Below, piece after piece: positions 522 through 38,495 of a DNA stretch of 64,000 nucleotides. A model generated the notes under the pieces. That model ran no database searches, was not told the origin of the DNA, and saw only the letters and a program-made list of their open reading frames with translations. This DNA comes from Fibrobacterota bacterium (GTDB lineage Bacteria > Fibrobacterota > Fibrobacteria > UBA11236). The stretch lies in NCBI GenBank assembly GCA_028287465.1, contig JAQBPO010000067.1, forward strand, positions 5,353 through 69,352, given 5' to 3'. Numbering within the stretch: position 1 is the first letter of the stretch; every line of letters starts with the position of its first letter. The position numbers and the translations under genes were made by a program.

Positions 522-1208
522 ATGGCCAAGAGCGGCGGAAATACCTTCAAGGGTGCGGTCTTCGATCTGGATGGACTGCTGATGGACAGCGAGCCGGTCT
601 GGAGATGGGCCCAGCAAATCGCCTTCACCGAATTGGGACTCTCCCTCTCGGAGACGATGCAGCATGCGACCACGGGTTTGCGCCTGTTTGAGGCCGTTGT
701 CGTATGGAAAGGCTATTTCCCGGAGGCGGATTTGGACCCGGAAAAGCTGAGGTCGAGACTGGTCGGCCTGGTGGCCGGAACCTTGCGCGATTCCGGACAG
801 CCCAAGCCCGGGGCGATCCGGGCCCTGGAAATCTGCGCGCAGGCCGGATGCCGTATGGCCATCGCCTCCTCATCGGCCCCCGAAGTCATCCATGCCGCCC
901 TGGATAGGTTGGATTCCCTGCATCCGGGGGCGAAGGGCTGGTTCCGGGAAATCCTGTCGGCGGAAGGGGAGATTCATGGGAAGCCCCACCCGGCCGTTTA
1001 CCTGTCCGCGGCGGCCAGGCTCGGGGTGGAGCCCCGCGAATGCATCGCCTTCGAGGATTCCGTGTTCGGTCTGAAATCGGCCCATGCCGCGGGAATGCAT
1101 TGCGTGGCGGTCCCGGAAGCCCATAATCGGGGCAGGACGGAATACGCCATCGCCCATCGGATCCTGGATTCCCTGGAAACGTTCAAACCGGAATATCTCA
1201 GCCCATGA
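522..1208 (+). CDS. HAD-superfamily hydrolase, subfamily IA (beta-phosphoglucomutase/phosphatase-like)
   Basis: Motif I FDLDGLLMDSE lies near the N-terminus when the start is MAKSGG at 522 (AAGGGAAG RBS). C-terminal FEDSxFG and HCVAV motifs are present. The stop overlaps the next ATG as ATGA. Confidence 0.8.
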   Translation: MAKSGGNTFKGAVFDLDGLLMDSEPVWRWAQQIAFTELGLSLSETMQHATTGLRLFEAVVVWKGYFPEADLDPEKLRSRLVGLVAGTLRDSGQPKPGAIRALEICAQAGCRMAIASSSAPEVIHAALDRLDSLHPGAKGWFREILSAEGEIHGKPHPAVYLSAAARLGVEPRECIAFEDSVFGLKSAHAAGMHCVAVPEAHNRGRTEYAIAHRILDSLETFKPEYLSP

Positions 1209-2032
1209 AAAAACGGAATACAATCGTATTGCGGCTTTCCATCCTGGTCGTTTCATCCTCCTGGGCCGGGAGCCGGGCCGAATCGCCTCCCCCATATGCC
1301 GACGGAAAGGTCAGGAGCATCGTGGTGGACAAGGGCCGTATCCGCGTCAAGGCACCGCGCGGCGGCTATCTTCCGGACGCCGACCTGTTGGGAGCCAAAC
1401 TGGTCGGCATGGACGAGGAGGGCCGGAGCGTGGCCTTCCGCATCGACAGCATCATCCCTTACCGCGACAGTATCGTGGACATGACCCTGTACTCCTTTTC
1501 CTCGCCGGATTCCCTGGGCCATTGGAACAACAGTTGCGGTCCGGATCGGATGGGCCGGCGCAGGGGGTTCGTGATGGAGGGTTACTTCGACGCGAAGGCC
1601 CTCCAAGTCGAGGATTCCTCCGCCTTCACCGTCACGTGCACGAGCGGCTCCGCGGGTAAATGCGTGCTTTTCGGATATGGGCCCTGGCTGAAGGGAACGG
1701 ATGGGTCGTCCATCAAGCCCTTGTTCCAGGCCTGCACGCGGATGGTGCGCGCGGATTATTGCGGGGACGGGACGCCCCATACCCGCAATGGGACCTTCAT
1801 CGAGCTCTGGGATTATAAGGGCATCCAAGGCGATGATCACCGGTCGCCCAACCGCTTCGAGGCGTCGTGGGCGCCGGAGGGCGCGGTCTGGATCAAGCGG
1901 ACCCGGATCCCCGAGGTCGCCACCCTCGATTCCATCGCCAAAGAGTGCCCGGAGCGTTACCGGACCAAAATGAGCGTTCCTTCCGATACTCTGGGTTTTG
2001 GCGAAGCCGTCTTATTCAATCGATCCCGGTGA
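1205..2032 (+). CDS. Secreted ADYC-domain protein (signal peptide; conserved ADYCGDGTPHTRNGT segment)
   Basis: N-terminal signal MKKRNTIVLRLSILVVSSSWAGS, and the ADYCGDG motif typical of ADYC-domain proteins. Confidence 0.6.
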   Translation: MKKRNTIVLRLSILVVSSSWAGSRAESPPPYADGKVRSIVVDKGRIRVKAPRGGYLPDADLLGAKLVGMDEEGRSVAFRIDSIIPYRDSIVDMTLYSFSSPDSLGHWNNSCGPDRMGRRRGFVMEGYFDAKALQVEDSSAFTVTCTSGSAGKCVLFGYGPWLKGTDGSSIKPLFQACTRMVRADYCGDGTPHTRNGTFIELWDYKGIQGDDHRSPNRFEASWAPEGAVWIKRTRIPEVATLDSIAKECPERYRTKMSVPSDTLGFGEAVLFNRSR

Positions 2033-2148
2033 CGTGGATCACAGGGTCAAATCGGCCCCGATTCACTACTTAGATTTTGGGAATCGGATGGGCGCCTTGT
2101 TGGACCTCGCCTATCTTCAGGCCTCCCCTAATCTTTATGGAGGTCTAA

Positions 2149-2736
2149 ATGGAATACAACATCACCCGATTGGCCGTCTGCCTTGTCATGACCGGTTTCG
2201 CGATGGCGCATGCGGGATTGAATGCGACGAATGGGTTGAATTCAATGAACGGTTTGAGCGGGGCCAATGGCTTGAACGCGATGAATGGCTTGAACGCGAT
2301 GAATGGCTTGAACTCACAGAATGGTTTGAACACCGCCAATGGGTTGAATGCAACGAATGGATTGAATGCGCAAAACGGTTTGGGCTCGGTCAATGGGTTG
2401 AACGCCATGAACGGTTTGAACGCAGGGAATGGTTTGAGCGCAACGAACGGATTGGGTAGTGCCAATGGGCTTAACGGGGCCAATGGCTTGAATGGAGCTA
2501 ATGGCTTGAATGGAGCTAATGGTTTTAATGGGTCCAATGGTTTGTCAGGCGTCAATGGCTTACAGGCAGCGAATGGCTTCAACACCGCCAATGGCCTTTC
2601 CGCCTCGAACGGAACGGCGGCGGCCTCGGTGGCTCCGGCGGCATTTGTCGCGCCGAAAAGCGTTCCCGGCGTCACGGTCAACCCCAAGAATACCGTGATC
2701 CACCTAGTTGGGATAGTCCTGGCTAACGGAAAGTAG
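2149..2736 (+). CDS. Secreted low-complexity protein made of 22 tandem GLNxxN hexapeptide repeats
   Basis: GGAGG RBS. Signal peptide MEYNITRLAVCLVMTGFAMAHA, then GLNATN GLNSMN GLSGAN GLNAMN ... for 22 units, then a short hydrophobic C-terminal tail. The opposite-strand ORF 2145..2687 (KPLAPF repeats) is the mirror artefact. Confidence 0.7.
   Translation: MEYNITRLAVCLVMTGFAMAHAGLNATNGLNSMNGLSGANGLNAMNGLNAMNGLNSQNGLNTANGLNATNGLNAQNGLGSVNGLNAMNGLNAGNGLSATNGLGSANGLNGANGLNGANGLNGANGFNGSNGLSGVNGLQAANGFNTANGLSASNGTAAASVAPAAFVAPKSVPGVTVNPKNTVIHLVGIVLANGK
2215..2610. repeat. 18-bp tandem repeat, about 22 copies, with consensus near aatggcttgaacgcgatg; codes for the GLNxxN units
   Basis: Direct reading of the sequence. 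The period of 18 nt is a multiple of 3, so copy-number change would keep the reading frame. Confidence 0.85.
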
Positions 2737-2816
2737 ACTTCGCCAGAAGCCCTTTCGATAGCTATGGACCGGAGCGAGGAGAGGATCGGGGAAACCCGTT
2801 TCCTACCGGCTCCGGT

Positions 2817-3284
2817 TCAGTCCGTTAGGCCGAACTCCCGCATCGCGGGAGGGAAGTTCCGGTTCTCATGCCCGGGGCGGCTGAGCTTGACCAAAGCGAA
2901 GCGTTGCAACGGATGCAAGGACGCCCAAGCCGCCAAGGGAAGTTCCATTCCCAGGGCATGGGCTTGTTCCAGTACTTGTTCGGGCACCAGATCGGCATTC
3001 TCCCAGACGGTTTCCGGCAGCTCAGGCAGCATGGAGGGCCGCGCTCCGGAGGATTCCTCCGCCATCCGGGATACCGCTTCGCGATAGGCTTCGATTTCCG
3101 TTTCCGTCCCGCACGGCTTCGAGGCCAGTTCCAGCCTCTGGTCCCGGGACAGCTTGGACCATTCGTTCAGCTTGAGCTTCACGCCTGTAATGTCCAGACG
3201 CATGCGGACCGCCATGGGGATGCAGCGCAGGCTGTCCACGAAATCCGCTTCGAATCCGAAGAATTCCGATCCGGGGTCCTGCAT
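2817..3284 (-). CDS. Nitrate reductase-associated protein (small conserved partner found in NasA clusters)
   Basis: 155 aa. Its start ATG overlaps the nasA stop (CTGATGCAG). Contains the conserved segment DITGVKLKLNEWSKLSRDQRLELASKPCGTETE. Confidence 0.6.
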   Translation of the reverse strand: MQDPGSEFFGFEADFVDSLRCIPMAVRMRLDITGVKLKLNEWSKLSRDQRLELASKPCGTETEIEAYREAVSRMAEESSGARPSMLPELPETVWENADLVPEQVLEQAHALGMELPLAAWASLHPLQRFALVKLSRPGHENRNFPPAMREFGLTD

Positions 3285-5521
3285 CAGGAGGGATCCTTTT
3301 CCACCCTGACCGCGCAATGCTTGTAGGAAGGCTGGCGCGAGTGGGGATCGAAGGAGGGGAAGGTCAGCCGGTTGACCTCGACGTCGTGCATGGGCATGAA
3401 CAATTGCCCGGGCTGGACGGTGGAAGCCACGGAGGCGCGGGCTCGGGCCTGGCCGCGGCGGGACCGGACCAGGACCCAGTCCCCGGAAGCGATCTTGAGC
3501 CGGGAGGCGTCCTCGGGGTGGATCTCCACCAGGGAATCGGCGGGATAGAGCTTGCGGAGCACGGCGGATTTCCCGGTGCGGGTATTGGTGTGCCATTGGG
3601 CCGAGGAACCGCGGCCGGTCAGGAGGGCGAAGGGAAACTCGGAGGTTACGGGCTCGGGGATGGGCTGCGGCGGGCTGAACTTGAATTTCGCCTTGCCGTC
3701 CGGATGGTAATACCGGCCATCCTCGAATAGGCGCCGTTCCCGGACGATGGGCCGGGCCGGGGTTCCGGCGCCGGGTCCTTCCGGATCCGGGGAGGCGGGA
3801 AGGGGCCATTGGATGCCCCCTTCCCGATCGATCATGCGGTAGTCCGTGATGCCGGTGAAATCGCAGGGGCGGCCCGCCGATAGCCTGGCCATCATCCGGA
3901 AGGCCTGTTCCGGCGTATCCATGTCCTTGAAGAGGGATTCGCATCCCCAGTATTTGGCGATGAGCTTGAAGATGTAGAAGTCCGCCAGGGCCTGGCCGGG
4001 GGCGGGATGGACCTTTTTGAACAGGCCCATGCGCCGTTCGGAGTTGATGACCACGCCTTCCTTCTCCCCCCAGGCGGCCGAGGGCAGGACCAGATGGGCG
4101 AGCTTGGCCGTGTCGGTATCGTGGTACATGTCCTGGACCACCAGGAATTCCAGCTTGGCCGCCGCGCGCCGGAAGTCCTCCTGATCGACCCAGGAGTGCG
4201 CGGGATTCGTCGCGATGACCCAGAGCGCCTTGATGCGGCCCGCGTTCACGCCTTCGATGATCTGATCATAGGCCAGGCCCGGCTTGTCCTGGATGATGCC
4301 GGCGTCGATGCCGAGGATTCCGGCCACCTCTTCGCGGTGCTTCGGATCCTTGAACTCGCGGCCGCCCGGGAGACCGGTGGTATTGCTGAAGAGGCGGGAT
4401 CCCATGGCATTGACCTGGCCGGTGATCGAGTTCGCGCCCGTGCCCGGCTTGCCCATATTCCCCGTCATCAGGGCCAGGTTGATGATGGCCTGGGCCGTGC
4501 GCACGCCCTCGTGGCTCTGGTTCACGCCCATGGTCCACCACAAGGATACGCGTTTGCCCGGGCGCAGGGACTCCGCGAACTCCATCATGCGGGCCTCGCC
4601 CAGGCCGGTAATCCTCCCTACCGCGGCCGGATCGAAGGTCTTCACGTGTTCGCGGAACTCCTCGAACCCGGTGGTATGGGCCTCCAGATAGTCCCGGTCG
4701 ATCCAGCCCTCGCGGATGAGGATGTGGGCGAGGCCGTAAAGCAGGGTGAGATCGGATTTGGGCTGCAGGGGATAATGGCGGGTGGCGGCCAAGGCGGTTT
4801 CCGTCTGGCGCGGATCCACCACGATGATTTCCGGGTTGCGCTTATTCATCATCACGCGTTCCCACATGATGGGATGGGCGATGCAGGGGTTCGCGCCGAA
4901 GAAGACGATCACGTCCGACTCTTCGAAATCCTTGTACGAAAACGGAGGCGCATCGAATCCGAAGGATTGCTTATAGGCGACGTGCGATGTGGCCATGCAT
5001 TGGCGCGTATTGGCGTCCCCGTGCACCAGCCCCATGCCGAACTTGGCCAGGAGGCCGAGCGCGAACATCTCTTCCGTGGGGATCTGCCCCGTACTCAGGA
5101 AGGCGGCGGCTTCCTTGCCATGGAAGGCGAGGACGGATTTGAACTTGTCGGTGAAGACGCGGAGGGCCTGATCCCAGTCGACGGGAGCGAGAGCGCCGTC
5201 CGGGCCGCGCAATAGGGGAAGGGCGGCGCGGTCATCGGCCTTCAGGGGGGTCAATGCCTCCCAACCCTTGGGGCAGGCCATCCCCAGGTTGACGGGGTAC
5301 TCCGGATCGGGCGTGAGGTTCACGGCCTTTCCGTCCTTCAGGTGGATCTTGAGCCCGCATCCCGTGGAGCAGAATCCGCAGACCATGGAAGTGGTGGAAT
5401 CGGGTTGCAGGCGTTCAGGGGTCTTGCCCAGGCCGAACCGGCCCGGGGACAGGACCATCTCATGGGTCAGCTTGCCGGTGCGTTGCCGCATGAATCCGGC
5501 GAATCTGTCTTTCAAATCCAT
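3284..5521 (-). CDS. nasA: Assimilatory nitrate reductase catalytic subunit (molybdopterin oxidoreductase, NasA/NarB type); cytoplasmic, with no twin-arginine motif
   Basis: N-terminal 4Fe-4S motif [13 protein letters not shown]-binding regions are conserved along the full length. 745 aa. Confidence 0.9.
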
Positions 5522-25785: not shown

Positions 25786-26208
25786 ATGCCTGCACGTAAA
25801 GCCAAAGCCACCTGGCTCGGGGACCTCAAGAGCGGAAACGGACAGATGTCCTTCGGCGGCCGTTTCGAACAGCCTTTCTCCTTTTCGACCCGCTTCGAGA
25901 ACGGAAACGGCAGCAATCCCGAAGAGCTGATCGGCGGCGCCCTCGCGGGCTGCTTCTCCATGGCCCTCTCCGGCGGCCTCTCCAAGGCCGGCTTCACCGC
26001 CACCCGCATCCAGAGCGAAGCCGACGTCTACATCGAGAAGGTGGGCGAGGGTTTCAAGATCACCAAGATCGACCTGCGGACGGAAGCCGAGATCCCCGGC
26101 ATCGATCGCGCCAAGTTCATGGAAATCGCCGAAGCCACCAAGAAGGGCTGCCCCGTTTCCCAGGCCCTGGCCTCGACCCCGATCAATCTGGAAGCCAAGC
26201 TGGCCTGA
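25786..26208 (+). CDS. OsmC/Ohr-family peroxiredoxin
   Basis: 140 aa with two conserved Cys (LAGCFS and KKGCPVS). Confidence 0.85.
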   Translation: MPARKAKATWLGDLKSGNGQMSFGGRFEQPFSFSTRFENGNGSNPEELIGGALAGCFSMALSGGLSKAGFTATRIQSEADVYIEKVGEGFKITKIDLRTEAEIPGIDRAKFMEIAEATKKGCPVSQALASTPINLEAKLA

Positions 26209-37631: not shown

Positions 37632-38495
37632 ATGGAAATCTATCCCTACGAGGATTATCGGGCGTACCTGCGGGATTGTTTCCGCGAGCGGAAAGCCCTC
37701 GAGCCCGGTTTCACCCATCGCAAACTCGCCGAGGCCGGCGGCATCGCCAATCCCGGATTCTTCAACGAAGTGGTCAAGGGACGCCGGGACCTGACGGAGG
37801 ACGCCGCGGACAAGTTCTGCCGCGCCTTCGGGCTGAAGGTCAACGAGGCGGAATATTTCAGGCTGCTGGTCGCCCATAACCAGAGCCGCGATCAGGATGA
37901 GAAGGACGAGCTGTTGCGCAAGATGCAGTTCCGCCGGGGCCGGAGCGCGTTCGCCCGCACCCATCCGGCCGCCATCCGGTATTACCAGGACTCGAGCTAC
38001 GCACTGGTGCGCGCCGCCCTCCGGGTCCTGGACTTCCGCGGGGAGTACGAACGCCTGTCCCGTTTCCTGAAGCCGCCCATGCCGGTCCCGCTCGTCAAGC
38101 GTTGCGTACGCGACCTGTGCGAATGGGGCCTGGTCAGGCAGGAGAGGGACGGCCGCTATGCCGTAACCAGCGCCTTCCTTGAACCCGGCCCCAATATGGA
38201 GGAAGCCCTCAAGCGGATGCATCGCGAATGGATCCAGCAGGCGTCCGAGACCCTCGACGCCTTTCCCAAGGCGGACCGGCATATCTCTTCCGCCCTGATC
38301 ACGGTTACGGAAAAGGGCTACCGCGACCTGATGAAGCGCGTGGAGGCGTTCCGGGCCGAAATGCTGGAATTGGTCAAAAAGGAAAGCCGCGGGCCGGAAC
38401 GGGTGGTGCAGTTCAACATCCAGGTGTTCCCAAAAAACGACATGGCGAACGACAAGGCGAACGACAAGGCGAAAGATAAGGCCGTGAAATGGTAG
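37632..38495 (+). CDS. TIGR02147-family protein (DUF4423-type HTH; paralogous regulator family)
   Basis: The N-terminal Y(x)DYRxYLRDxF...RK and FxGxANPGxxNxVxKG pattern is typical of TIGR02147. It is 50% or so identical to the 42476 gene. Confidence 0.7.
   Translation: MEIYPYEDYRAYLRDCFRERKALEPGFTHRKLAEAGGIANPGFFNEVVKGRRDLTEDAADKFCRAFGLKVNEAEYFRLLVAHNQSRDQDEKDELLRKMQFRRGRSAFARTHPAAIRYYQDSSYALVRAALRVLDFRGEYERLSRFLKPPMPVPLVKRCVRDLCEWGLVRQERDGRYAVTSAFLEPGPNMEEALKRMHREWIQQASETLDAFPKADRHISSALITVTEKGYRDLMKRVEAFRAEMLELVKKESRGPERVVQFNIQVFPKNDMANDKANDKAKDKAVKW

Follow-up and report, generated by a model that had tools for sequence, protein, structure and literature searches.

A widespread gene pair of ADYC-domain proteins and secreted Asn-Gly repeat proteins, with a six-residue-period variant in a Fibrobacterota genome

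The window analyzed here is a 64,000-nt stretch of contig JAQBPO010000067.1 (assembly GCA_028287465.1) from a Fibrobacterota bacterium, and it includes a small open reading frame (ORF) that encodes a signal peptide, 22 tandem hexapeptides, and a short tail. The question raised by this locus is what kind of protein this is, and whether it acts alone. A sequence-only reading had likened it to beta-helical solenoids and ice-binding proteins, had thought a variable surface or matrix protein plausible, and had pointed out that it adjoins a secreted ADYC-domain gene. That neighbor is not incidental: it is a conserved genetic partner, sometimes fused to the repeats in a single ORF, a relationship which the earlier reading had missed. 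The ADYC/repeat gene pair is widespread and previously undescribed, and the window protein is a six-residue-period variant of its short-repeat type.

The translation bears out the description of a signal-peptide protein built almost wholly of in-frame hexapeptides, and the array lies exactly where it had been placed, with no indels in any of its 22 units (Table 1). The proposed GLNxxN unit holds in part. Its register is kept throughout, with G at position 1 (all four Gly codons are in use) and N at position 6 in 22 of 22 units, but position 2 is L in only 20 (F in two) and position 3 is N in only 15 (S in four, G in two, Q in one). Position 4 is always small (A, G, S, or T, with A, S, or T in 16–17 of the 22) and position 5 is variable. 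GLNxxN is a consensus only; the strictly kept core of the window units is N-G-[LF]. Asn and Gly account for 28% and 23.5% of the repeat region, respectively, and charged residues, Pro, and Cys are all absent from it. Tandem Repeats Finder reports an 18-bp period with 70–83% matches. Column entropy is lower in this frame than in any of the other five (1.00 bit, vs. 1.49 in the open antisense frame and ~1.9 in the others), and two amino acid columns are invariant despite synonymous codon variation; both observations argue for a gene rather than a chance reading frame. The forward-strand ORF is a real gene.

The ADYC gene lies 116 nt upstream on the same strand, so the adjacency in the earlier reading stands as well. 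Its product has six conserved Cys residues and a RADYCGDG motif, and is 100% identical to a protein from a Fibrobacteres bacterium metagenome-assembled genome (P0037; loci and proteins are referred to below by L and P numbers). The public annotation of P0037 (235 aa, JWP91_3292) begins at an internal codon (…VDKGRI) and so has no signal peptide, while the 275-aa ORF starting at 1205 has one and agrees with its orthologues at the N-terminus.

Each of the closest homologues of the window ADYC protein (55–67% identity) likewise has a small same-strand gene directly downstream. When translated, these have the same layout each time: a signal peptide, Asn-Gly tandem units, and a tail ending in [VI]xLxGI[VI]L(A/P)... 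A signal-peptide ending of the form ...GF(A/T)xxHA, followed by G, is common to the window protein, L001, L003, L148, and L149. The tail has an alternating hydrophobic strand motif, and in its alignment the L, G, I, and L columns are invariant, with the window's VIHLVGIVLANGK aligning with ..KLVGIILPEDEK, ..HLVGIVLPEEI, and ..VRLxGI[VI]LA.D.E. The tails found in other phyla (h-x-L-x-DG-x-x-h-x-L-K) are longer than that of the window.

The linkage extends well beyond the Fibrobacteria. An ADYC alignment, searched against one genome per species, gave 80 loci, in Fibrobacteria, Alpha- and Gammaproteobacteria, Myxococcota, Cyanobacteria, Thermoanaerobaculia, and others. A metagenome scan with a clade alignment added 61 loci, among which the sole close relative was already known; with a single ADYC protein as query, the metagenome scan had zero matches. 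A partner-like ORF was found at 88 of 151 ADYC loci, giving 93 unique partner sequences. Most of these (84) are upstream of ADYC and have a repeat period of five residues, four are downstream with the same period, and five, on either side, have a period of six. The window protein shares their combination of a signal peptide and Asn/Gln-Gly units at fixed spacing, the spacing being six where 88 of the 93 have five. Period-5 pairs in cultured strains include those of Tahibacter aquaticus DSM 21667 (L054), Nostoc (L084), and Azospirillum soli (L017). Where the locus is flanked by 1.5 kb or more on each side, a separate partner is present in 47 cases, a fusion in four, and neither in 36, under a strict filter which also overlooked some true partners. 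Many loci have two partner paralogues (L115, L121, L124, L130, L139, L141, L144, L104, L108, L142, L149/L150), usually both upstream of ADYC, with one on each side in L149/L150. Partners are scarce among annotated proteins: a partner-tail profile run against a set of 5.8 billion proteins recovered only P0157, the L003 partner.

In at least eight cases (P0117/L151, L016, L113, L116, L133, L134, L136, L137) the two genes are one, with a signal peptide, NG/QG pentapeptide repeats, and ADYC in a single ORF. That the repeats and ADYC function as a single unit is argued mainly from this recurrent fusion, taken together with the conserved adjacency. An AlphaFold model of the fusion protein P0117, built from a 48-sequence alignment, has a predicted local distance difference test score (pLDDT) of 82 and a predicted template modeling score of 0.80. 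The repeats nearest ADYC (residues 54–89) are modeled as regular beta strands with pLDDT >90. As a separate observation at L151, 3..770, a gene with an FGE-sulfatase (formylglycine-generating enzyme-like) domain lies ahead of the P0117 gene.

The period-5 partners bring to mind the pentapeptide repeat proteins (PF00805/PF13599; Qnr, MfpA, and the lumenal cyanobacterial Rfr proteins), some of which are exported. The likeness is in tandem, very short units with a central Leu or Phe and a polar or Gly turn. The pentapeptide family has the consensus A(D/N)LXX and a right-handed quadrilateral beta-helix fold. Some partners, including L001, L035, and L051, exceed the Pfam Pentapeptide cut-off; L001, the partner of an ADYC orthologue (P0043) ~57% identical to that of the window, scores 28.6 bits against a cut-off of 20.2. 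The window protein differs in its strictly six-residue period, its invariant N-G, and the residue before the polar one, which is bulky rather than small. It matches neither Hexapep nor any Pentapeptide family in Pfam, even at E ≤ 10. Pentapeptide repeat proteins are not known to be linked to ADYC. The partner family is partly recognizable as pentapeptide repeat proteins, yet is not a clean subfamily of them. Within this widespread and uncurated family, whose members are small and secreted, the window protein represents the Fibrobacteria type with a period of six residues.

The six-residue period is confined to the window and four relatives (L003, L148, and two in L149/L150). In a neighbor-joining tree of ADYC proteins (no bootstrap), loci with period-6 partners fall in one subclade, while L001 and L006, period-5 loci also from Fibrobacteria, are outside it. 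The simplest reading is a single change from five to six in this lineage. The core common to the period-6 clade is N-G-L, with units of NGLNxx in the window, NGLSTS in L148, and NGLSSI and NGLNAL in L149. Such a switch of unit length within one orthologous lineage is unusual for short-repeat proteins, and is a natural test of how much unit length matters in arrays of this kind.

Length variation, which the sequence-only reading had expected from an in-frame 18-bp repeat, is real in the partner family. Within the period-6 group the unit counts are 3 (L149 downstream), 4 (L003), at least 14 (L150 upstream, where the contig end cuts the array), 22 (window), and ~27 (L148). A difference of one or two units separates period-5 partners that are otherwise near-identical (L145/L146, L139/L141, L106/L135, L103/L112/L118). 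Four contigs with an identical ADYC protein (P0045) have downstream genes of 61, 61, 67, and 79 aa; the 61 vs. 67 aa difference is one of start codon call, and the 79-aa gene implies two extra units, judging from lengths only. The expectation fares less well for the window array itself, which is old and diverged. Mean pairwise DNA identity between its units is 0.63, identical neighbors occur only at units 4–5 and 16–17, and the longest exact period-18 self-match is 30 nt. With 63% unit identity it is not a classic slippage-prone contingency tract. The L148 array, by contrast, is young and unstable, with units 92% identical at the DNA level and a 107-nt exact period-18 self-match. No evidence was found that the window protein is a phase-variable surface protein, and exact look-up, the metagenome scans, and the tail-profile search turned up no further copy of this locus.

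On balance, the window ORF probably encodes an exported repeat module that associates with ADYC, doing in trans what the fusions do in cis. Outside the cytoplasm, the two proteins would then function as a single unit. Tight turns are classically formed by the two-residue sequence Asn-Gly, and for this reason the array is best pictured as turn-rich and elongated: a regular module with Asn-Gly at the turns, Leu as the sole buried position, and a length that depends on how many units it has. Contact with ADYC would most likely be made by the conserved tail. Units are gained and lost by in-frame duplication and deletion, and module length drifts between lineages and strains.

Several observations weigh against this interpretation. 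Under the strict filter, ~40% of the well-flanked ADYC loci have no adjacent partner. Only 8–9 of 71 partners match Pfam pentapeptide models at E ≤ 1e-3, and the window protein is not among the matches. The window tail is shorter and more diverged than most, and the repeat part may be disordered. Single-sequence AlphaFold gave the window protein a pLDDT of 46, with 34–44 and no secondary structure across the repeats, a result that is uninformative rather than negative proof. On the ADYC side, a search of the PDB with the ADYC alignment profile had zero matches, a Foldseek comparison of the P0117 model with the PDB found no fold neighbor (best E 0.08, TM ~0.1), and literature searches for ADYC or PF20032 returned nothing relevant.

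A possible, if clearly less probable, alternative is that the array is a disordered, uncharged Asn/Gly segment, acting either as a flexible tether or as a matrix subunit, prion-like or prone to form amyloid, whose assembly ADYC would nucleate or anchor. The Asn- and Gly-rich, charge-free composition with one hydrophobic position per unit would suit this, as would the low AlphaFold confidence, the almost pure Ser/Thr/Asn/Gly units of L148, and the tolerance of both five- and six-residue periods among orthologues. Composition is not all that is kept, however: N-G-L is strictly retained at a constant spacing while synonymous codons vary, some period-5 relatives score above the Pfam Pentapeptide cut-off, and the repeats of the fusion protein are modeled as confident beta structure.

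The same motif also serves as an N-terminal linker in other proteins, a further point in favor of disorder. A phmmer search against 1.8 billion representative sequences had 2,117 matches, mostly low-complexity proteins, among which no further ADYC-type partner was recognized. This search for other GLNxxN proteins did turn up NGLNxx arrays in an unrelated, lectin-bearing family of apparent lipoproteins (P0193, P0195, P0210, P0270, P0286, P0276, P0005). These consist of an N-terminal NGLNxx array, a Cys-rich LMTSxxGRxTxSYxVRCAL domain without a Pfam match, and ricin-B, CBM6, or F5-8C modules, in that order. The array is located between the signal peptide and putative lipid-attachment Cys on one side and the globular domains on the other, a position which fits a spacer or stalk and so also counts in favor of the elongated module preferred above. 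They share with the window protein the motif and period (e.g., NGLNAHNGLAAI), export, and a variable number of units, but here the repeats are a spacer in a large multidomain protein, and the window type of C-terminal tail is absent.

A more ambitious form of the preferred interpretation, in which the repeat protein associates with ADYC, can be put forward tentatively, with a probability a little below that of disorder. The pair would be a split extracytoplasmic machine, in which a new NG solenoid or ribbon fold, with a turn in each five- or six-residue unit, docks in trans on an ADYC protein that itself has a new fold, to sense or act on a ligand in the envelope or outside the cell. The length of the array would be adjusted through gain and loss of units, and the Lysobacterales pair would belong to a new signaling input module. 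A gene for a Ser/Thr kinase with TPR repeats comes after ADYC at 16 loci, mainly in Lysobacterales, and at 12 of these the order is a divergent extracytoplasmic function (ECF) sigma factor (PF07638), partner, ADYC, and kinase (L012, L018, L019, L023, L024, L035, L038, L041, L045, L046, L049, L054). The hosts of this arrangement are Lysobacterales and one Thermoanaerobaculia genome. The Fibrobacteria locus L006 has an ECF sigma factor upstream too. These neighborhoods hint at a link to envelope signaling in the lineages that have the sigma factor and kinase. The flanks in the window are different, with a HAD phosphatase upstream, nitrate-assimilation genes downstream, and neither ECF sigma factor nor TPR kinase among the neighbors.

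At a subset of loci the partner tail (h-x-h-x-L-x-DG-x-x-h-x-L-K) resembles the N-terminal hairpin of mature ADYC (FxLxLxDGRVL). The strict hairpin motif occurs in 21 of 93 tails and 17 of 101 ADYC N-termini, compared with 0.3% in background and 0.9% in shuffled sequences. The motif is enriched but not general, and is unclear in the window pair, so it was kept out of the core evidence. The likeness suggests either that a single gene was split, with the hairpin duplicated, or that the two proteins pair by their strands.

It is unlikely that the repeat protein is instead a substrate or multi-core precursor, with ADYC an extracytoplasmic enzyme that cleaves, cyclizes, or cross-links its Asn-Gly units. 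Many short units after a signal peptide, encoded beside a Cys-rich protein with invariant polar residues (K152, R182, D184, Y185, D203, E219), are what such a system might look like, and Asn-Gly is chemically the most reactive context for Asn. Recurrent fusion of repeats and ADYC in one chain would not be expected of a substrate, however, and the units differ in sequence within one protein, there is a conserved non-repeat tail, and no resemblance of ADYC to an enzyme family was found.

The reading first proposed for this ORF, taken here as an autonomous left-handed beta-helix or Asn-ladder, antifreeze-like solenoid forming a phase-variable surface or matrix protein, now appears slightly more doubtful still. 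The strict six-residue period, the fixed Leu, Asn, and Gly, export, and varying copy number in relatives all speak for it. Left-handed beta-helix proteins (PF00132; LpxA-type acyltransferases) do share a six-residue period with one aliphatic residue per unit, but they are cytoplasmic enzymes with the motif [LIV]-[GAED]-x-x-[STAV]-x. In the window the order is G-L-x-x-x-N, with Gly before Leu, and the Hexapep model is not matched. The likeness to beta-helical antifreeze or ice-binding proteins lies in export and in short, regular repeats rich in Asn and small residues. None with a solved structure is a sequence relative, orthologues do not keep the Asn at position 3, and ADYC-linked orthologues with three or four units would be unable to present an ice-binding face; they are too short to form a solenoid alone, which argues against the autonomous reading in general. 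The beta-solenoid expected from AlphaFold was not predicted, and the unit DNA identity of only 63% tells against this reading as well. Neither the library searches nor the AlphaFold model lends support to a left-handed beta-helix or an antifreeze-type solenoid.

Database matches of the window protein were to collagen-like and other low-complexity sequences. A PDB sequence search gave only such matches, with per-stretch E values >2; these were rejected as homology, and no antifreeze protein was among them. The only Pfam model that it matches, Collagen (PF01391), scores 34 bits (cut-off 27.2) over residues 105–145, which is regarded as a low-complexity artifact: Gly occurs at every third residue only in units 15–19 (GLN-GAN) and not over the whole array. 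NCBIfam has weak matches to collagen-like adhesins (Scl/Lcl), far under their cut-offs. Across the Pfam searches as a whole, matches to GLTT and Lamprin were likewise judged compositional. The likeness to bacterial collagen-like proteins (Scl1/Scl2, Lcl) is one of Pfam score only, since the window array has neither Pro nor charged residues.

That the repeat is non-coding, or that the antisense ORF is the true gene, is very improbable: the antisense frame is open, it was the gene callers' choice in L148, and the exact window product has no record, but the forward frame has the lowest entropy and two invariant columns, it has a ribosome binding site and a signal peptide, and its ends outside the repeat (signal peptide and tail) are conserved across orthologues, while those of the antisense ORF are not. 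The antisense frame owes its openness solely to wobble positions that fall together with those in the forward frame. In L148, a shadow ORF with ~30 KPLLVD repeats (1317..1952, reverse strand) was called over the NGL[ST]TS repeat gene (1345..1977, forward strand). Calls on the wrong strand are probably why the partner proteins are nearly missing from protein databases; in an exact-product look-up neither the window ORF nor P0037 had any record.

ADYC (PF20032) is a domain of unknown function found in at least five bacterial phyla, and its pairing or fusion with a length-variable Asn-Gly repeat protein is a first functional handle on it. A second uncurated family is defined at the same time, whose genes are often overlooked in gene calling or assigned to the opposite strand. 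The practical gain for the window is modest, namely a gene pair with the right strand and the right names.

Table 1. Features of the repeat-protein locus in the window (positions are those of the 64,000-nt stretch).
Feature	Position	Strand	Remarks
ADYC-domain protein gene, 275 aa with signal peptide	1205..2032	+	PF20032, E 5e-44
Shine-Dalgarno-like GGAGG	2139..2143	+	5 nt before ATG; read directly
Antisense shadow ORF, 180 aa, KPF/KPL repeats	2145..2687	-	Judged not to be a gene; no conserved ends
Repeat-protein ORF, 195 aa + stop	2149..2736	+	ATG start; orthologues in the same position and strand after ADYC in L001, L003, L006, L148, L149
Sec-type signal peptide MEYNITRLAVCLVMTGFAMAHA, 22 residues	2149..2214	+	Predicted cleavage after AHA; read from sequence
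Repeat array, 22 in-register 18-bp/6-aa units, G-[LF]-x-x-x-N	2215..2610	+	
Units 4–5, exact tandem duplicate	2269..2304	+	Recent unit duplication
Units 16–17, exact tandem duplicate	2485..2520	+	Within GLNGAN stretch 2467–2556
C-terminal tail without repeats, 41 aa	2611..2733	+	
Conserved C-terminal motif VIHLVGIVLANGK	2695..2733	+	Signature of Fibrobacteria-clade partners, [VI]xLxGI[VI]L[AP]...
Strong GC-rich hairpin 3' of stop	2765..2818	.	Possible terminator, perhaps shared with the convergent gene

The predicted fold of the region containing the hairpin (2730–2860) has an energy of -58 kcal/mol (z = -2.9). The convergent nitrate-assimilation cluster (2817..5521, reverse strand, onward) begins with a NarM-like nitrate-reductase-associated protein, followed by a NasA/formate-dehydrogenase-like molybdopterin oxidoreductase. 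The true start of the NarM-like ORF is probably internal, since the domain is confined to the last 144 of its 375 codons. Two further short tandem repeats are found elsewhere in the window, at 25939..25989 (24 bp, 2.1 copies) and 38436..38482 (12 bp, 3.9 copies).

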